Positions 14,118 to 62,433 of a DNA stretch of 64,000 nucleotides are shown one piece after another. Position numbers and translations under genes: made by a program. The number at the start of each line of letters is the position of its first letter. Position 1 is the stretch's first letter. Below the pieces are notes generated by a model. The model searched no databases. It saw only the letters and a program-made list of their open reading frames with translations, and was not told the origin of the DNA. This stretch comes from an uncultured Candidatus Saccharibacteria bacterium (lineage in GTDB: Bacteria > Patescibacteriota > Saccharimonadia > Saccharimonadales > Saccharimonadaceae): contig CAZPCQ010000001.1 in assembly GCA_964585155.1 (NCBI GenBank), forward strand, positions 8,070 to 72,069. The letters run 5' to 3'.

Positions 14118-14212
14118 TCCGAGGCGACGAACCGCCCCTGAAGCGGGGCCTAAGACTTGGCCGAGCGGCCCGGAGCGGCCCCGCGGAAGGGGTGGGAGTG
14201 CAAGCCATCGGA
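14118..14212 (+). repeat. Structured repeat family A, short copy inside a larger nested inverted repeat
   Basis: GGCGACGAACCGCCCCT..CTAAGACTTGGCCGAGCGG..GCGGCCCCGCGGAAGGGGTGGGAGTGCAAGCC, flanked by a perfect 19-bp IR (14068-14086/14248-14266). Confidence 0.85.
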
Positions 14213-16456: not shown

Positions 16457-18229
16457 TCACCGCGCCACGCATCTCACTGAAAGACCGTCATAACGGTTAC
16501 CATAACCACCGTTCTGTGCTGTGGGGTTTACTGAACTGCTGAAGGAGAGAACATATGATATAATATCGCTAACAGCACTATCGGATGACCAGTAATCGCC
16601 GCGAGAGCCAGCTTCTGTCATAGTCCCATGATACATATACCCACTGTATACGAAGAAAAGCGGCGCCAATCTGATATCGTATTGACCACTAGATAAGGTG
16701 CTCTGAAGGTTATATTGCGAGAGAAGGAAACCGAAAGATTTGCTGGATGTCTTATTATTGCCTATTGGTAGACGCCATCCCCTTGGACATATACTTCGTG
16801 AAGCAGATGCTTTGTCTGAAATATTCTGCGCCTCATTGGCTGTTGTTGCTCCCCAAGAGTAGTAATTACCTGATAAATAATGCGCGTCATACTCTTTATT
16901 AGTAACTACCTGGTTCCCCATATCTTTATAGAAATTAGGATTATCTGATGGAGTTAACGATTGTACGTTTTTCCATACATCTGCACATCCAGATAACGCA
17001 CTACCAGCGGTCAAATCACACTTTTTTATGGAAGTAGGATTTGAAAGTGCATATACGCCAGGGTTATAGTATTTCACCAAATTGGCGGTGTTTTGACTAC
17101 CGGACCAGAACCCACTCGCCCCCGTCGTCGACTTCCAGCTCCCCACTGTTTCCGGAATATCCGAATCCGCACTCGTCAGCGTCCTCCCGTTCAGATCAAG
17201 CGCCAAATTCTGCGTCATCCAACAGTTGCCATCCGCTAACTTCGCAATCCAGTAATACTTGCTATCTCTCGCATCCTTCACTCTTGCTGTATCACCTATC
17301 AGCGCCGCATCGCACACTCGCCACGTCATATCTTGCATTGTCGGCAGGGAAGATAGATTGACTACTTCTTTCGCATCTGTCGCTACACTCAGTGTGATAT
17401 TTGATTTATAGTGATCCGCTTTCGCCCCTTCCATATTTGCCGCGAACGCCAAAGTATATGGTTGTGTCACGTTGGTCAGTTGACTTCCATCACTTTTCTT
17501 CACTGTATCCGCCGCTATCCCTACTGTTGATTGGATTGCTTGATAAGTCAAACTCGCCGGGTCCGCATTATGACTTTTTGCCACCGCATAACCCCACTGC
17601 ATCGCGCCAATTCCATTCGCTGCTGTCGCTGTTGCGATACTACTAATTACATCCGGATTATTTGGTGTCGCACCGGTCAGCAAAGTACTGTCCGCCTGCA
17701 CGAACACTTGATATTGATCTACGTTGTTTGCTCCCACTGTGAAGTTTATGCTAATATATTGCGCTCCACCACTACTAGATACAGGCTGCGTGATAGTATT
17801 GTTATCCATTGCCGTGTCAATACTTAGTGCTACTCCTTTTTCCGGCACCGTTAGCGCTTGCGTATCGATCAAATTTTCTGTGTCACCCTCAGTTGCTGAT
17901 ACTTCACTTATTTGAGTAGGGAATATCATCATTCCGATTAACCCAACCAGAGCCAATGACGCCATCGCCGGCAAGCCTAGAGGAATTATCTTGCCCACAA
18001 TACGACTTTTCTTATGATTTAGACAAAATTCTTGGCGAGGGTCGCTCCCGAACTTTTCCACCACTCGTCCAGCCGCTTGTGTTTTCCTAAAGAAACTCTT
18101 ATTCAACTTATTTTTGTAGAAACAAGTACGTTTATCACTACGAAGAAGATGTGATTTTTGCTTAAGTTTTTCTGCACAAGAAACATTACTTTCTCGCACA
18201 GAATAAGTTTTCTTTATTCTATGCCTCAT
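16457..18229 (-). CDS. FISUMP (Fib_succ_major) domain surface protein 1
   Basis: LADGNCWMTQNL, GNYYSWGA, ICPRGWRLP, GDYWSS, GLSVRCVAR; TM helix; RBS AAGGAGG before MRHRIKK. Confidence 0.8.
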   Translation of the reverse strand: MRHRIKKTYSVRESNVSCAEKLKQKSHLLRSDKRTCFYKNKLNKSFFRKTQAAGRVVEKFGSDPRQEFCLNHKKSRIVGKIIPLGLPAMASLALVGLIGMMIFPTQISEVSATEGDTENLIDTQALTVPEKGVALSIDTAMDNNTITQPVSSSGGAQYISINFTVGANNVDQYQVFVQADSTLLTGATPNNPDVISSIATATAANGIGAMQWGYAVAKSHNADPASLTYQAIQSTVGIAADTVKKSDGSQLTNVTQPYTLAFAANMEGAKADHYKSNITLSVATDAKEVVNLSSLPTMQDMTWRVCDAALIGDTARVKDARDSKYYWIAKLADGNCWMTQNLALDLNGRTLTSADSDIPETVGSWKSTTGASGFWSGSQNTANLVKYYNPGVYALSNPTSIKKCDLTAGSALSGCADVWKNVQSLTPSDNPNFYKDMGNQVVTNKEYDAHYLSGNYYSWGATTANEAQNISDKASASRSICPRGWRLPIGNNKTSSKSFGFLLSQYNLQSTLSSGQYDIRLAPLFFVYSGYMYHGTMTEAGSRGDYWSSDSAVSDIISYVLSFSSSVNPTAQNGGYGNRYDGLSVRCVAR

Positions 18230-38337: not shown

Positions 38338-38660
38338 TATTACCCCTCCTAATTTTTTGTCTTCTGATCTGATTTCACTGGATAACCGCAGTAGAACTTG
38401 TATAACTACCTGGTTTATAAAGTCCCACTTCGGTCTTTGCTGGATTTTTGCTGGTTTCTGCTATGTCTGGCCCATCCGCCAGAGATTTTCCCACCTTTCT
38501 TCTAGTAAAATTGATTTCAAAGAACCTCGGGTCACACCCAACCTTCAAATTATAGCACACTTCACCAAACATTTCAAGTCTTGCCAAAACGCTTATGCTG
38601 TGCTACAATAAGCTCATCGCTCTGCTAATGAGCCAAAAGTTGATTTTTCTATAAAGATTT

Positions 38661-38870
38661 TGAGGGCGGCGAACCGCCTCTGGAGCGGGACCTAAGACTT
38701 GGCCGAGCGGATTCCGAACTGCCGAGAATAGCGAACAGAAAGAAAAGTCTTTGAGTAGTATTCTATATATCATACACTTTATTAGACTTTTCTTTCTTAA
38801 GCGACGCAGGCAGCATGTGGCGCCAGCCACTGCAGCGGTCCCGCGGAAGAGGTGGGAGCGAAAGCCCTCA
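38661..38870 (+). repeat. Structured repeat family A, full copy
   Basis: Aligns end to end with 62221-62430; ends 6 bp from the galE stop codon. Confidence 0.9.
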
Positions 38871-40519: not shown

Positions 40520-42178
40520 CTAGCTGCCAGTAGTAAGGCAGCGAATTGACTGTGCGAAAGTCTGTGACGTGCCAGAGGATGTTCCCGCATAGTTAGCAGT
40601 AAATGTAAAGGCGTTAGCATCATTTCCATTAGGTATGGAGGTCCAATATCCCCCTTGCTTGCCTACATCATCATAGTCAGCCCCATTGCTGTATCGTCCG
40701 GCAGGCACTAAGTATTGTGGTGAATGCCGCAAAGTTCCATAATCACTACCCGTCACTGAGACTACGAAACTAGTAGGTAATTTCCATCCTTTAGGGCATA
40801 TATCACCATTCCCGCTAGCAGCACCAACGTTGCTACCACGAGTATTACTTGCATTTGCTGTATTATATGGGTAGTAATCGCCAACAAGATAATGAGTGTC
40901 TGTATTATTGGGGATACTTCCATTAAAGACCTCGAAATATGCTGTACAGGTAATAACTGTCCCTATATGGCAACCGGTCGATGGCATAGCTGCTGTGGCG
41001 CTAGATGGTTTATATATGTATGTGCCAGGATTATAGTAATTACCTAAGTCTGAAAACGTAAACACAGAAGGTACATTAGTGTCTTCCGGTTTCAATGTAG
41101 TCCCTACAGACAACGGCAAATCAAGATTTTGTGTCATCCAACAATTTCCGTCTTTCAGCTTGCCAACCCAATAAATAGTTTTGCCTAATCCACTCGTAGT
41201 GCGATCATCTACAAGTTGGATTTGGTCTCCGACTGCCATATTTGAGCAGACGGTCGGATATTTTGCGAACTCTTGCATTGTTGTTTCGCCACTTATTACA
41301 TCCAAAACGTCCCACTCATTCGGTAATACGGATAAAAGTACATTTGAAGTATAATGGCCAGCAACTTTATCTTTGCCGAATTTTGCTGCAAAGGAGATCT
41401 TAAGGGCTGCGCCAGCTCCCCCGGTACTTTTGTCAGTAGTATAACTTTCGGTCTTAGTTGGTTCTACTTCCGGCATAGTGCTATATTGTAAACTGGAATC
41501 AGCTTTGCTGGATTCTGCTATTGCGTATCCCCAAGTATTGTCTGCAAAATTATTGGGGGACACATTTTCTCCTACTCCAAATAACACATCGGGCGCTTCT
41601 TGGTTTTGCAATTTGTTAGAGTTTGCCTGTACATATACTTTGTAGCCTTGTGTTCGGCACGCTGTCACTGTAAAATCTTTTGAGAGATAGCTGACTGCAT
41701 TATTGGCAATATCGTCGTCTACACTCTTACTTAAATTTACATCTCCGGTCATATCAAGCGCTAAAACTGGTTTTCCGGCGGCACACTCTTCTGCTGGAGT
41801 TTCCGCATATACTCTTTCTCCGCCAACTCCCACTGGAAATATCATTAAACCTAATACCAAAAGAAGAGCAAATGAGGCTAGTACTAGAGGAATAGTACTA
41901 GGTCTAAGCGACCCAACTCTTCCTTTCCTAAGAAACCGTCCGCAGCGCCACGAGCGAGGAAGAGGTGGCTCGCACCCGTAACGACGGGCTGCGAGAACAC
42001 CGCGTTTCGTGGAAAGTGAAGAGTTGAGGTCGCTTGCGTCAGAGAACTTATCATTACTTGGCTTATCTTTGTAGAAATAAGTATAAGTACTTTTATCACT
42101 ATGAAGAAGATTTTGTCCATCACTAACGCAATGTAACAACGTACTTAAGTTTGGTATTTTCTTTATTCTATGGCGCAT
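40520..42178 (-). CDS. FISUMP domain surface protein 2
   Basis: LKDGNCWMTQNL, GDYYPYNTA, ICPKGWKLP, GGYWTS, QSIRCL; starts MRHRIKK like protein 1. Confidence 0.8.
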   Translation of the reverse strand: MRHRIKKIPNLSTLLHCVSDGQNLLHSDKSTYTYFYKDKPSNDKFSDASDLNSSLSTKRGVLAARRYGCEPPLPRSWRCGRFLRKGRVGSLRPSTIPLVLASFALLLVLGLMIFPVGVGGERVYAETPAEECAAGKPVLALDMTGDVNLSKSVDDDIANNAVSYLSKDFTVTACRTQGYKVYVQANSNKLQNQEAPDVLFGVGENVSPNNFADNTWGYAIAESSKADSSLQYSTMPEVEPTKTESYTTDKSTGGAGAALKISFAAKFGKDKVAGHYTSNVLLSVLPNEWDVLDVISGETTMQEFAKYPTVCSNMAVGDQIQLVDDRTTSGLGKTIYWVGKLKDGNCWMTQNLDLPLSVGTTLKPEDTNVPSVFTFSDLGNYYNPGTYIYKPSSATAAMPSTGCHIGTVITCTAYFEVFNGSIPNNTDTHYLVGDYYPYNTANASNTRGSNVGAASGNGDICPKGWKLPTSFVVSVTGSDYGTLRHSPQYLVPAGRYSNGADYDDVGKQGGYWTSIPNGNDANAFTFTANYAGTSSGTSQTFAQSIRCLTTGS

Positions 42179-42590
42179 CTGCCCTCCTTGTGGGTATTAA
42201 TTATCGCCCCGCAGCCGCCATCTTTGAGGAGGGCCAACTCCATACAAAAATGGCGCCGCGAGGCGAAACCACAATCTAGAAGCAATCTGCTCAAGAACGT
42301 TAGCTTTCTCGTGACGCCATTTTCACGTTCTCAAACAAATACACTCAAATAAGCAATTGTCATAATTCCAAATTGTGATTTCGCACTTCCAATTATATAT
42401 CAAACTGTCTGCGTTTTCAAGCATTTTTCTCGCCTCCCCAGCGAGCTGACGTACGTATCATAAGTTTCATAACCCACTCTTTAGCAGTTAGGATTAAAAA
42501 CCTTCAGAGCTGTCAACAACACGGCCTCCTAAGGCAGATACCTCCTCCTCTCCATCTCTCCTCTAGCGAATTAATCTTGATATTATGCTC

Positions 42591-42746
42591 GGCGCGACCC
42601 GGTGAACCTTTTCATTCGAGGTTATTTCGTTCCTGGCTGGCTCGGGTCCGATTCAGGCGGGTTGGTTCTGAGTGAGAATGGGCTAAATCCTGATGAGGAG
42701 AGAGCCACCAAACCTCGGAGGGAAAGGTGAGCGCAAGGGGAGCGCC
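42591..42746 (+). repeat. Structured repeat family B, copy 1
   Basis: GGCGCGACCCGGTGAACCTTTTCATTC..GGAAAGGTGAGCGCAAGGG shared with 51742-51898. Confidence 0.85.
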
Positions 42747-48924: not shown

Positions 48925-49189
48925 CCCATATTAAAAATTTCCAACAAAAACCCTGCTGGATGCTAGGATTTCTCATCCCATATTTCCATTATAGCACGCA
49001 TCTGCCAAAAAGTCAAGACCATACCGCGTGAATCCCTAAGCCTTGCGTCGCCAACCCGAGGCGCCGCTCTAGGGGGGGTAAAAATTCCTAGAGACACAAA
49101 GTAGTTTAGGGATTCGGGTCATACCCACACATACGACTATCAATCTTAAAAACCTCCCCCGCTTGCGCAGGGGAGTTGGGTGGTTAGTT

Positions 49190-49753: not shown

Positions 49754-50252
49754 TAAAATTCCTCCTTTGAGTAGTCTAAAGCCACTCCATCCAGTGGCCT
49801 TATTTCTACCCAAACAGGGAATTAACTAACCAAAATGTACCTAAGCCACTACAGATAATAGACTGTAGCCAGCCCATATCTCCACTATAGCACACATCTG
49901 CCAAAAAGTCAAGGTTGCTTTTCCGCCCAATCATATGATTTTATACTATCGACTAAAATAAAATCAATACCGCCTACACTTCTCTCCTGCAAAGTCAAAC
50001 TAACTCGCGAAATCTCACTATTTTCCACTCAAAACCTAAATTCTGTGCTATAATAGAACTGCTGAAAGACAATTTGATTAAGTAACCTATGGTTTTATAT
50101 GTAGCCTACATTTTTCATAATGCATTAAAATGGCGTCACGAACGGCTAAAAAAGTGCATTGTGATCGTAAGGTTACTCTGTTGTCTTTCAGCACCGTCTC
50201 GCGGCGCCATTTTTGTATTAAGCCTCGGGCGGTGAACTAATAAAGGAGGCAG

Positions 50253-51737
50253 ATGCTAAAACTCAACACTAAATTAAAATACCCACTCTTCACAATAACT
50301 TTTGCGTTGGGTGGATTTTTCTTATTTCAATACCTAACTTTTATTCCCGAATACTCCAACGCCACAACTATAGAAACTCCCGTCTACGACGATTCCAAAG
50401 TCGACACGCGCACTCTTTCTGACATTACTTATATGCAAGAAATGACATCTGGAATATGTAAACGTTCTGTAAAAAATGAAAGTAAACAACTTATCGATGG
50501 CCGTGATGGAAAACACTATTGGGTAACAAAGCTCGTTGGTCCAGGCGGTGAAGAAAAAAATGGATGTTGGATGACGCAAAATTTGGATTTCGATTTGTGG
50601 AATGAGGAGACTAATGAACCAATAGTATTAAAAGTGGATAATTTAAATTTTATGGGCACAGATATAGAAAAGAATTGGGAGTCTACTTCTGGGAGATCTG
50701 TGCTATGGGCGGATTCGGGGAGCGAGACAGTTAAGTACTATGACCCGGGGTACTATTTGTATAAAGGCTTTTCTTTACGTCAGCCGGCGTCTCGCGATTT
50801 GGCATATGGCAAGGCATCGGAAAATTTGACCTTGACGGATGCTCATTACCTTCAAGGGAATTACTATTCATTCAACGCTGCTACGGCTGGCAAAGGGGCA
50901 AATTTTGGCCTTGTGGGTAAGGATGAAGATGTACGGAGTAGTATTTGTCCGAAAGGCTGGAGGCTACCTACGGCTCTTAGTGATGATGGGGTGTCATTCA
51001 ATTTTTTAAATACAGTAAGCACAACTAAGATATTTTCATCACCGTATTTCTTTATAAATAGCGGTTTTGTGAATGGAGGCTTGCTAGATGATGCCTTCGC
51101 TGGTAGATACTGGTCTTCTACGGCTTATGCTTATAGGGACGATGCTTATGATTGGGGTTTTGCTGATGGTGACGAGTGGCCAGCGCTTGGTATAATTTAC
51201 AGATATGAGGGAAAGACTATAAGATGCGTAGCGAGGGACGATACTGAAGATGTGGAGACTCCGGGCATTGATAATCCAAACACCTCCGTCACCGTCCCAA
51301 ACATAATAACACTAGACGTAAGTAATAATGTAAATATAGAAACAAATACTAATACAGTAAACGAAGGTAGTTTCACCGCTTCCGTCAGTTCTAATGCTCC
51401 ATATAGCATTAGTCTTAGTACCACGGATGGTGGCCACACCGACTTACGTAATGATAATACCAACTCCTCCATTCCCGCATTAAACCCTACTTCTAATATC
51501 ACAGAGAGTAGTAGTAAATGGTGGGGAATCAAATGTACTAACTCAGGCACTTCCACGGGTTGTACTAAAACAACCTATACTGGTCTTACTAATCACTTAA
51601 CTCCCACTCTTTTCTATACATCAACTCAAAGTACCTCTAACCAACTCACCCACTTCACCATCGGCATCCAAACCTCTCCCGACCTCCCAAGTGGCACTTA
51701 TTCCACCAGTATATTAGTTACTGCATCTCAGAATTAG
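50253..51737 (+). CDS. FISUMP domain surface protein 3 (FISUMP first, beta-sandwich domain last)
   Basis: NGCWMTQNL, GNYYSFNAA, ICPKGWRLP, GRYWSST, TIRCVAR; RBS AAGGAGG. Confidence 0.8.
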   Translation: MLKLNTKLKYPLFTITFALGGFFLFQYLTFIPEYSNATTIETPVYDDSKVDTRTLSDITYMQEMTSGICKRSVKNESKQLIDGRDGKHYWVTKLVGPGGEEKNGCWMTQNLDFDLWNEETNEPIVLKVDNLNFMGTDIEKNWESTSGRSVLWADSGSETVKYYDPGYYLYKGFSLRQPASRDLAYGKASENLTLTDAHYLQGNYYSFNAATAGKGANFGLVGKDEDVRSSICPKGWRLPTALSDDGVSFNFLNTVSTTKIFSSPYFFINSGFVNGGLLDDAFAGRYWSSTAYAYRDDAYDWGFADGDEWPALGIIYRYEGKTIRCVARDDTEDVETPGIDNPNTSVTVPNIITLDVSNNVNIETNTNTVNEGSFTASVSSNAPYSISLSTTDGGHTDLRNDNTNSSIPALNPTSNITESSSKWWGIKCTNSGTSTGCTKTTYTGLTNHLTPTLFYTSTQSTSNQLTHFTIGIQTSPDLPSGTYSTSILVTASQN

Positions 51738-51741
51738 TCTC

Positions 51742-51898
51742 GGCGCGACCCGGTGAACCTTTTCATTCAAGGTTATTTCTTTACTGGCTGAGCCGGGTCC
51801 GATTTGCGAGAGGAGAATAGTAGAACAGAATAACTATGCTCCGCAATGAGGAGAGGCTCACCGAACCTTGAATGGAAAGGTGAGCGCAAGGGTTGCGC
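51742..51898 (+). repeat. Structured repeat family B, copy 2
   Basis: Homologous to 42591-42746; starts 4 bp after the FISUMP-3 stop codon. Confidence 0.85.
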
Positions 51899-54074: not shown

Positions 54075-54431
54075 CCCTGCGGCTTTGTTTCATAATTAAT
54101 GTACCACCTCCGCAAAAGAATATCGTTCCTAAGTTATGAAAACAAGTCTAACCCTACTCCAACAATCTGCCTTTCTCGCAAAAATATCCTTAGTTAAGCC
54201 ACTTTTCTAGTTTTCCGCCACCCCGGCTCACTCGAGTCGGGGCGTTTTCTTGCAGTTCCACAAGCCTCTCTCTAGAACATCCAATCTCCGCATAAATTCC
54301 GTCAAAATTATCAAATACTTTTGCCTTTTTCTCAAAAATAAGCATAAAACTATTGACTTTTTCACAAATGTGTGATACAATAGAAATATAGGATAATACC
54401 TATATAATATCTCACTGGGGGGAGTAAGATA

Positions 54432-59927: not shown

Positions 59928-60230
59928 TCTTCTTTCCTATAAAATAACGAACAAGCCATAATTGACCCACCTCTATTATAGCACACAATTTTCCCAAAAT
60001 CAACTATCATTGTGGAAAACTTCCCATTTTGTCCATTATTTTAATAAAAATCCTAAATTACCGCAACAGGGAACTACCCCTATTACCACAACTCTCATCA
60101 CCACTCAAAACCTATAGATTAACCATAAAAACTATTGACAAAAACAAAAAAGTGTGCTACAATGGATGTATAAGGTGGCTAAATAATAGCTCGTACCTAA
60201 CACAATTTGTATGAAAAGGAGAATACCGTT

Positions 60231-60908: not shown

Positions 60909-61361
60909 CTATCACTCATACCAACTTGCCGGATTCGACCCATACGCCTTTTCAGCAAAACTCGCCCCCTACCACCCGTAGGGGGCACTTGCTATCCCGA
61001 ACCAAAGTTCAAAAATTAGTCATATTAATCGCGCAAGAGCAACTACTACTTTAGTAATTACCAATTTTGTCCATTATTTTAATAAAAATTCTAATATCTC
61101 GCAATTAAAACTACCCCTGTAAACATACCTTTATCCCCTAATCAAATCAGTAAAATAGACATAAAAAGTATTGACAAAAATAGCAATGTGTGCTACAATG
61201 GAAGTATGAGATACATTAAGTATCATCAAGCAGTTTAATAGTTCTTGAAATATAGGTAAAAATAAAATCATTTCCTCAGTTTACCACGTAATTTTTCGGA
61301 GTAACGACCTCGATTTCGTGGAAATGATTTTAGATTATCTATATTTCAGGAGGGAAAGAAA

Positions 61362-62166: not shown

Positions 62167-62217
62167 TGAATTAGAATAATAAAAGATGAAGTTTAATAAT
62201 TTGACGTAGAAAATGAT

Positions 62218-62433
62218 TTTGAAGGCGACGAACCGCCCCTGGAGCGGGGCCTAAGACTTGGCCGAGCGGATTCCGAACTGCCGAGGATAGCGACTAGAAA
62301 GAAAAAGTCAGTACGTATCAATATATAACCAATGTAATACAAATGACTTTTTCTTTCTGGAGCGACGCAGGCAGCACGTGGCGTCAGCCACTGCAGCGGC
62401 CCCGCGGAAGGGGTGGGAGTGCAAGCCTTCAAA
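62218..62433 (+). repeat. Structured repeat family A, full copy in the dnaK leader
   Basis: TTTGAAGGC..GCCTTCAAA termini; homologous to 38661-38870. Confidence 0.9.

Follow-up and report, generated by a model that had tools for sequence, protein, structure and literature searches.

Structured leaders upstream of surface-protein genes in gut Saccharibacteria: an apparently undescribed family and a possible split-terminator attenuator

Why should the leader of a surface-protein gene carry two sets of complementary segments that cross one another, the second of them ending in a run of U residues? The question is raised by a 64,000-nucleotide stretch of DNA (called the window below) from an uncultured Candidatus Saccharibacteria bacterium (NCBI GenBank assembly GCA_964585155.1, contig CAZPCQ010000001.1, positions 8,070 to 72,069 of the forward strand), in which a gene for a 552-aa membrane protein is preceded, on the minus strand, by a promoter and a folded leader that we refer to as leader 2 (leaders 1 and 3 are its paralogues elsewhere in the window). 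Saccharibacteria are tiny, mostly uncultured episymbionts, and we take the genome of this one to have the typical size of about 1 Mb. Leader 2 is a member of what is apparently an undescribed, large family of structured leaders in gut Saccharibacteria. As to its function, we give roughly even chances, judged from sequence, to its being a transcription attenuator that works through two topologically exclusive folds.

Results

Predicted fold of leader 2

The earlier note on this DNA had placed a promoter and the segments a, b, a′ and b′ of leader 2 on the minus strand, and all of these were located there in our analysis. The elements are as follows (positions in the window).

42415 to 42420, minus strand: −35-like hexamer TTGAAA, not conserved across the leader family
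42392 to 42397, minus strand: −10 hexamer TATAAT, separated from TTGAAA by a 17-nt spacer (promoter scan score 11/12)
42384 to 42366, minus strand: full 5′ arm of helix a, GCGAAATCACAATTTGGAA, at the base of the 5′-terminal rod
42384 to 42372, minus strand: core of the 5′ arm of helix a, GCGAAATCACAAT
42340 to 42325, minus strand: 5′ strand of the inner helix c
42323 to 42308, minus strand: b, the conserved apical segment AAAATGGCGTCACGAG (AAAAUGGCGUCACGAG), 5′ strand of the proposed split terminator
42300 to 42285, minus strand: 3′ strand of the inner helix c
42281 to 42263, minus strand: full 3′ arm of helix a, TTCTAGATTGTGGTTTCGC
42275 to 42263, minus strand: a′, core of the 3′ arm of helix a, ATTGTGGTTTCGC
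42262 to 42246, minus strand: b′, CTCGCGGCGCCATTTTT (CUCGCGGCGCCAUUUUU), the complement of b, ending in U5 (42250-42246)
42234 to 42227, minus strand: anti-Shine-Dalgarno-like sequence GCCCUCCU, read in leader 2 and complementary to AGGAGGGC at 42188-42181
42226 to 42216, minus strand: b2, a second b-like segment CAAAGAUGGCG, which could pair with b′ after transcription passes b2
42188 to 42181, minus strand: Shine-Dalgarno sequence AGGAGGGC
42178 to 40520, minus strand: downstream gene, for the 552-aa membrane protein with a Fib_succ_major (PF09603) domain

With a repeat finder, the pairing of a with a′ was confirmed and turned out to be longer than first described, extending over 19 bp (42384-42366 with 42281-42263) with three G·U pairs included, while b and b′ showed 88% complementarity over 16 nt. 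A third inverted repeat, c:c′ (42340-42325 with 42300-42285), had been missed, and because this inner helix encloses b, the b segment lies in the apical region of the leader. The 157-nt leader has a predicted folding energy of −54 kcal/mol (z = −4.3), and none of 200 shuffled sequences was equally stable. The predicted structure of lowest energy is a single long rod with a:a′ stacked on c:c′ and with b at its apex.

A family of about 100 leaders

Two homologues in one Saccharibacteria assembly carry the same leader, and these served as the starting point for a conserved string, CTCG[CT]GG[CT]GCCATTTTTGTAT. Scanning species-representative genomes with this string returned 94 stretches, about 88 of which are in Saccharibacteria assemblies from the guts of sheep, goat, mouse and others; about five matches in other phyla are due to chance, as all other leader features are absent from them. 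A covariance model gave 95 sense-strand matches at E ⩽ 1e−9, and a b-anchored scan of JGI metagenomes added only six more true copies, too few for an unbiased estimate of b′ conservation. The family thus comprises about 100 copies from about 25 gut Saccharibacteria assemblies, with 10–15 copies per genome, nearly all of them upstream of Fib_succ_major-domain membrane proteins.

The copies share a common anatomy. Among 91 copies the −10 box reads TATAAT in 55 and TACAAT in 19, with an upstream TG (extended −10) in 61, and in 69 of the 91 the hexamer ends 4–5 nt before the first pair of helix a. From this spacing the transcript is predicted to start, probably, at the base of helix a. In the Saccharibacteria copies helix a starts with UGU... 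and ends with ...ACA(CC), the apical segment b has the consensus AAUGGCACCAYGAG(G), and the rod is followed just on its 3′ side by the conserved 14–16-nt complement b′ (CUCGUGGUGCCA) and then U5. The U-run after b′ is at least five residues long in every copy, including divergent copies from a search that did not require a T-run. One degenerate copy (L082, 5322–5476) has good b, c and b′ segments and U5, a weak helix a and no recognizable promoter; the gene that follows it, 314 nt downstream, is of the murJ type and has no Fib_succ_major domain.

The leader family found no match in Rfam 15 or in the literature searched. When the whole window was searched against Rfam 15 at the gathering threshold, only a tRNA was returned, and E-value scans of leader 2, L047 and L036 gave only chance miRNA and snoRNA matches, with 12–22 bits against gathering thresholds of 42–211. 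We found no described cis-regulatory RNA family in Saccharibacteria at all.

With respect to the genes that follow, PF09603 was matched by 53 of the 65 genes downstream of family leaders, and almost without exception the first long open reading frame after the leader is preceded by the Shine-Dalgarno sequence AAAGGAGGGC and encodes a basic N-terminus. The leader is always in sense orientation, at a distance of 34–305 nt from the gene. These positions bear on the possibility that the leader is a separate small RNA gene, with the approximately 150-nt unit from promoter to U5 as its product and the downstream gene expressed by leak-through. Although the unit does have a promoter of its own and a terminator-like end, such a gene would not be expected always upstream of one gene family at this distance and in this orientation, no free-standing copies occur among the approximately 100, and the rod sequence is different in every copy, so that no common target is apparent. 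We thus consider a small RNA gene very unlikely.

Covariation of the helices and strand asymmetry

The two paralogues in the window are placed as follows.

50058 to 50221, plus strand: leader 3 (a 50060-72, b 50127-41, a′ 50181-93, b′ 50198-214), upstream of gene 50253..51737
18530 to 18327, minus strand: leader 1 (a 18524-09, b 18435-22, a′ 18369-54, b′ 18347-34 plus a U-run), upstream of gene 16457..18229

Leader 3 scores 82 bits against the covariance model and folds like leader 2 (z = −4.1). The near match of b and b′ between these two leaders, claimed previously, amounts to identity over 15 nt in b and over 21 nt in b′, while 10 of the 13 pairs of helix a differ when counted from the helix base. 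The two helices a had been called unrelated in sequence, which is slightly overstated for leaders 2 and 3, since an indel-shifted alignment has GC..GAAA..ACAAT in both; it is accurate for the family as a whole, where identity between copies is only 36% over the first 14 nt of the 5′ arm. Leader 1 has the same layout, with a different b/b′ sequence that nevertheless pairs, including two G·U pairs.

Since the arms cannot be aligned by sequence, we relied on base-anchored counts and on a covariance model in which helix a was specified by hand; with RNAalifold on a plain MAFFT alignment, only part of b:b′ was recovered. In the unfitted analysis, where gapless helices were anchored at the base and the first pair was forced to be Watson-Crick, helix a has a median length of 18 bp, its positions 1–13 are canonical in 97–100% of copies (position 2 in 93%), and all four Watson-Crick types occur at most of these positions. 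Altogether 1488 Watson-Crick, 113 G·U, 22 A·C and 22 other pairs were counted. The mean helix-a score of 32.5 compares with 14.6 (maximum 29) for cross-paired arms of different copies, and 72 of the 91 real scores lie above that maximum. Helix c, with a median of 12 bp, behaves similarly (score 20.9 versus 9.1 when cross-paired; 118 G·U versus 33 A·C pairs).

The model alignment of 95 copies tells the same story, with double-sided changes in 12 of the 13 pairs of helix a and 96.9% of its cells paired. The whole-helix covariation read in the earlier note from the replacement of helix a within an unchanged architecture is therefore upheld, and it generalizes from the paralogues to the 95 copies. 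For b:b′, 96.5% of cells are paired, four pairs being changed on both sides and eight on one. The covariation score was 0.571, against 0.181 for shuffled alignments (0 of 500 reached the real value) and 0.065–0.103 for slid registers. The nulls relied on were cross-pairing, shuffling and slid registers; controls with reversed or complemented sequences are invalid as hairpin nulls, because reversal keeps the pairing. In addition, a descriptor search independent of the b′ sequence returned seven copies with a different b′, and all seven had compensating changes in b (for example UGAC/GUCA, CGGC/GCCG and UGGU/ACCA); three divergent copies had joint changes in b, b′ and the tip partner of b. To call b:b′ conserved, as had been done, is thus correct and says too little, since it also covaries in divergent copies and crosses both a:a′ and c:c′.

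The large excess of G·U over A·C pairs in helices a and c indicates that the sense strand folds as a single strand. Consistent with this, the antisense strand of the same sites scores 25–46 bits, about half of the 58–107 bits of the sense strand. Both observations are relevant to the idea of an element that acts at the DNA level, that is, recombinase inverted repeats flipping a 45–70-bp segment (phase variation), an attC- or MITE-like repeat, or a cruciform. Such an idea is suggested by a conserved inverted repeat, b/b′, in front of a multi-copy surface-protein family; a flip of the segment would turn the antiterminator into a terminator, and there are other long palindromic repeats in the genome. 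Recognition of a DNA duplex, however, would not favour G·U over A·C or a sense model that scores about twice the antisense one. Moreover, the rod orientation is seen in at least 90 of the 91 assembled copies, and each of four DNA runs gave one 483-nt unitig in a single orientation, although rare variants may be hidden in contigs. Each rod has a sequence of its own, that of leader 2 being at single-copy depth, unlike MITEs; 45–70 bp would be very short for inversion; and the copies are scattered, each with a promoter of its own, and not arrayed like gene cassettes. On the grounds of orientation, strand asymmetry and sequence uniqueness, we rejected the inverton, attC and MITE readings, and consider any action at the DNA level extremely unlikely.

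The rod itself is asymmetric family-wide. Its 5′ arm is longer than the 3′ arm (62 versus 51 nt), U-richer, and holds most of the unpaired bases (17 versus 7); the bulges in this arm are U/A-rich, with UUU enriched 3.4-fold. Wobble pairs with U on the 5′ and G on the 3′ side outnumber the opposite kind two to one overall, and the excess is far greater in helix a.

Two crossing folds and a candidate split terminator

The order of the elements is a-c-b-c′-a′-b′, meaning that b:b′ crosses the whole rod. Since a:a′, c:c′ and the crossing b:b′ all covary or keep pairing, two structures that would exclude each other are both under selection. The rod (a:a′ plus c:c′) has a median length of 126 nt, about 43 bp and about −52 kcal/mol, with the centre of b at 0.55 of its length. 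The b:b′ duplex of 14–16 bp, with its GGCRCC/GGYGCC core and U5 or more directly after it, has the stem of an intrinsic terminator and amounts on its own to −23 kcal/mol.

We infer that b:b′ and U5 may form a split intrinsic terminator, the strands of which are separated by the 3′ arm of the rod. Placed as they are between a promoter and a Shine-Dalgarno sequence, the GC-rich helix of 14–16 bp and U5 bear the signature of an attenuator terminator, which is why the leader may be read as an attenuator; a read-through/terminator function is plausible because U5 follows b′ in every copy. The rod would be the antiterminator, because its 3′ arm splits the terminator strands and its 5′ arm starts at the predicted 5′ end of the transcript.

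The same elements could also be explained by a constitutive structural 5′ untranslated region with no regulated termination, in which the rod guards against 5′-end-dependent decay or serves as a site for a double-strand-specific RNase. In that case b:b′ would be a tertiary or pseudoknot contact, or would control ribosome access via b2 and the anti-Shine-Dalgarno-like sequence, and the U-run would bind a protein or act as a pause site. The high stability of the rod and the predicted start of its helix at the transcript 5′ end both fit this. In leader 2, moreover, a 17–18-bp hairpin b′:b2 is possible that encloses the anti-Shine-Dalgarno-like sequence, and b2-like segments lie downstream of b′ in about 15% of family members; through such a hairpin the leader could be coupled to translation in some subfamilies. 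The arrangement of b2 and anti-Shine-Dalgarno-like sequence is not family-wide, however, and a U-run of at least five residues after a GC-rich helix in every copy, those with diverged b/b′ included, is the signature of a terminator. A purely structural leader seems to us unlikely on balance.

In the attenuator model, the RNA would begin at the base of helix a, behind a strong extended −10 promoter. If the rod forms, b would stay at the apex, where part of it is engaged in a small tip hairpin, at a distance from b′, and the polymerase would continue into the surface-protein gene; such a rod, extending to the 5′ end, would also stabilize the read-through mRNA. If the rod does not form, or if the apical AYGAG loop is captured by b′ at the expense of the tip pairing, b:b′ would form beside the U-run and transcription would stop. 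One shared trans-acting factor, either a protein or an RNA, might set the balance for the whole gene family. Such a shared reader is suggested by the sequences because b/b′ is near-invariant in the 10–15 paralogous leaders per genome, and strongly conserved between species too, while the rod drifts freely. Two variants can be envisaged: either a factor keeps the rod from forming, which would lead to termination, or the rod forms in every case and b′ goes on to capture the apical loop unless the factor blocks this.

Several points weigh against such an attenuator. Its terminator would need a loop of 45 nt in leader 2 and of 41–70 nt family-wide, compared with the normal 3–8 nt. Forcing b:b′ gives a median of −43.2 kcal/mol versus −54.3 for the rod fold (median gap 11.2; leader 2 gap 5.4), and since the rod forms first and is the more stable, the terminator would rarely be expected to win unless there is an active factor or a pseudoknot-type capture. 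Neither a:a′ nor c:c′ shares any nucleotide with b:b′, so only the short tip pairing would compete with it, and this is only modestly supported (52 of 91 copies versus 37% of shuffled ones in a strict test). The lengths of the lower and upper rod segments are not coupled (r = −0.28), leaving a fold-back geometry unsupported. The invariance of b′ is partly an ascertainment effect, because the copies were collected by a b′ pattern. We identified no sensor, ligand pocket, leader peptide or trans-acting factor. Finally, the RNA-type data consist of assembled contigs only, are confounded by repeats and say nothing about transcript ends: contigs from RNA-labelled runs on a mouse-gut copy are fragmentary, include DNA upstream of the promoter, and are collapsed on the repeated b′ and 5′ coding segments.

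Some further searches are to be set beside these points. A standard terminator scan makes no call at b:b′ of leader 2; in favour of termination, classical terminators with a hairpin and U-run are otherwise enriched in the window (31 versus 18 ± 4.6 expected). Short open reading frames occur in individual 5′ arms, but with no conserved AUG or Shine-Dalgarno sequence. No repeated binding motif was seen beyond the U-rich bulges of the 5′ arm, and no further copies of b or b′ outside leaders were found in 728 kb.

The second variant may be taken further, to a pseudoknot terminator that acts by loop capture and is subject to protein antitermination. Here the rod would be a scaffold that presents b, termination would be the default, and an RNA-binding protein on the apical hairpin or on b′ would block capture and turn the genes on, in other words an attenuator with its default reversed. 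Both crossing helices do covary, the rod forms before b:b′ and is in every case the more stable of the two, and the sequence is conserved in b/b′ and not in the rod. In the predicted rod folds, b positions 3–9 (UGGCACC) are usually paired with GGYGCY just 3′ of the AYGA loop, while positions 10–13 (AYGA) are unpaired in more than 90% and could pair with the part of b′ that emerges first (CUCGU), which would provide a toehold. The geometry is less favourable: b′ is tethered at the base of the rod, at a distance of about 43 bp from b in the apex; the uncoupled segment lengths mentioned above count here as well; and of the gaps flanking b (3–4 nt from helix c to b, 6–7 nt from b to c′) the former is too short for a full 14-bp helix in a closed loop. 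No candidate protein was found either. Capture by default therefore appears rather improbable to us.

A bolder form of the attenuator model would make the leaders a new class of regulatory RNA, namely a split terminator with loop capture, in which one reader recognizes b/b′ and the rods, with their varying length, bulges and stability, act as timers or identity tags specific for each paralogue. We regard this as quite unlikely. If true, lectin-like surface proteins could be expressed differentially or singly by the episymbiont, and Saccharibacteria would have RNA-based surface variation with no DNA rearrangement.

The downstream gene and its 5′ region

The PF09603 match of the 552-aa protein is weak. 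The label FISUMP given to it earlier is apt for the protein domain and misleading as a hint of the organism, which belongs to the Saccharibacteria (TM7) and not to Fibrobacter. In a cluster look-up the proteins of the window, even DnaN and NusA, were singletons at 90% identity, and the only named relatives of the 552-aa protein are annotated as Candidatus Saccharibacteria. A protein-guided locus search of species-representative genomes, using an N-terminal alignment of two MRHRIKK proteins, returned no relatives. Fib_succ_major is a reported target domain of diversity-generating retroelements (PMC4159848, PMC5758913), and a link to such elements was considered for this reason; no pair of template and variable repeats was seen in the window, which holds three Fib_succ_major genes.

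The N-terminal coding part of the gene 40520..42178 contains, in frame, an element of about 80 nt (ACGGTGTC..CAGCCCGTCGTTACGGGTG..CACCTCTTCCTC.CTCGTG; 41930-42040, minus strand) that is homologous to the non-coding 5′ untranslated region of other family members (L001 9830-9930; L028; L085). It shows a compensatory change in a GCCCGU/ACGGGU hairpin and has about 10 times the genome depth in DNA contigs. The region 42062-42196, which includes the Shine-Dalgarno sequence and the first codons (MRHRIKK...), is at 20–30 times the genome depth in DNA contigs and is split into unitigs of 44–129 nt. This depth and fragmentation suggest mosaic, recombining 5′ modules common to many paralogues or strains.

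Neighbouring repeats and contig links

An intergenic repeat of about 165 nt occurs in two copies, 83–89% identical, one immediately preceding the promoter of leader 2 and one closely following the stop codon of gene 50253..51737; it folds as a long hairpin (−78.6 kcal/mol, z = −4.5). A second intergenic repeat, of about 220 nt and 89–98% identical between copies, is a near-perfect long palindrome (−102.5 kcal/mol, z = −7.6) and resembles a MITE or a structured RNA of another kind. Several unrelated genes are preceded by shared promoter-like modules (TTGAC..N..TGTGCTACAAT; families D1, D2 and D7). The positions are as follows.

42582 to 42745 and 51733 to 51898, plus strand: repeat of about 165 nt
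38653 to 38870 and 62212 to 62431, plus strand, with a partial copy at 14122 to 14168: repeat of about 220 nt
48974 to 49017, 49870 to 49913, 54346 to 54390, 60128 to 60172, 61164 to 61208 and others: promoter-like modules

A contig present in all four DNA runs (X1–X4) joins 42109 to 42612, skipping 502 bp that include the leader and its promoter, with only 22–24 nt flanking the joint. Because both flanks are high-copy, this joint is probably another paralogous locus or a link in the assembly graph rather than a deletion.

Discussion

With 10–15 copies per genome, the leaders form a large family for a reduced genome, and their covariation is unusually clean. They precede the main expanded surface-protein family of the organism, with its C-type-lectin-like Fib_succ_major domain, and it is plausible that these proteins mediate attachment, be it to host bacteria or to the gut environment. 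In architecture the leaders depart from the textbook, one terminator strand being placed at the apex of a long 5′-terminal hairpin and the other just beyond its base, and the leader thus offers a case for long-range, topologically exclusive folds in termination and for the coordination of paralogous surface proteins in a reduced genome. Whether the kind of leader is best described as a transcription attenuator with an atypical split-terminator architecture is, on the sequence evidence, a question with about equal weight on either side.

The closest comparison is with the attenuators of B. subtilis (trp/TRAP, pyr/PyrR, the bgl-sac RAT and the T-box). Like these, the leaders have a promoter of their own and a GC-rich helix with a U-run before the coding region, an alternative fold that is predicted to be mutually exclusive, and one conserved element in front of many genes of a regulon. 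Unlike in those systems, the rod helices share no strand with b:b′, for which only the tip pairing would compete, and the proposed antiterminator is a hairpin of about 43 bp that has one terminator strand in its apex and would fill the terminator loop with its 3′ arm. No binding-site repeats, specifier, T-box sequence or ligand pocket was found, and the Rfam models of those attenuators were unmatched. For the T-box in particular, there was no match to RF00230 at E ⩽ 10 in leader 2, L047 or L036, and the downstream genes encode surface proteins; a likeness of UGGC/GCCA to the T-box we take as a lead only.

In the repZ/repA leaders of IncI-alpha and IncB plasmids, pairing between a loop and a downstream sequence alters expression; these pseudoknots have 4–8 bp, activate translation and are controlled by an antisense RNA. 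The leaders described here likewise have a hairpin whose apical loop is matched by a complementary, conserved sequence on its 3′ side; they differ in that the complementarity extends over 14–16 bp and abuts a U-run, with no antisense RNA evident. The 5′-terminal stabilizer hairpins of E. coli ompA and of B. subtilis aprE and ermC are short and have no conserved apex, complementary 3′ flank or U-run; what they have in common with the leaders is a stem at, or a few nucleotides from, the 5′ end of the transcript, a start that is predicted in our case. The surface loci of gut Bacteroides, with their invertible promoters, which have an inverted-repeat consensus in common, and UpxY antitermination in 5′ untranslated regions, differ from the present family, where no inversion was detected, no NusG-like factor was identified and the conserved element is a covarying RNA structure. 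In both groups, however, many paralogous loci are each equipped with a promoter of their own and a conserved leader element.

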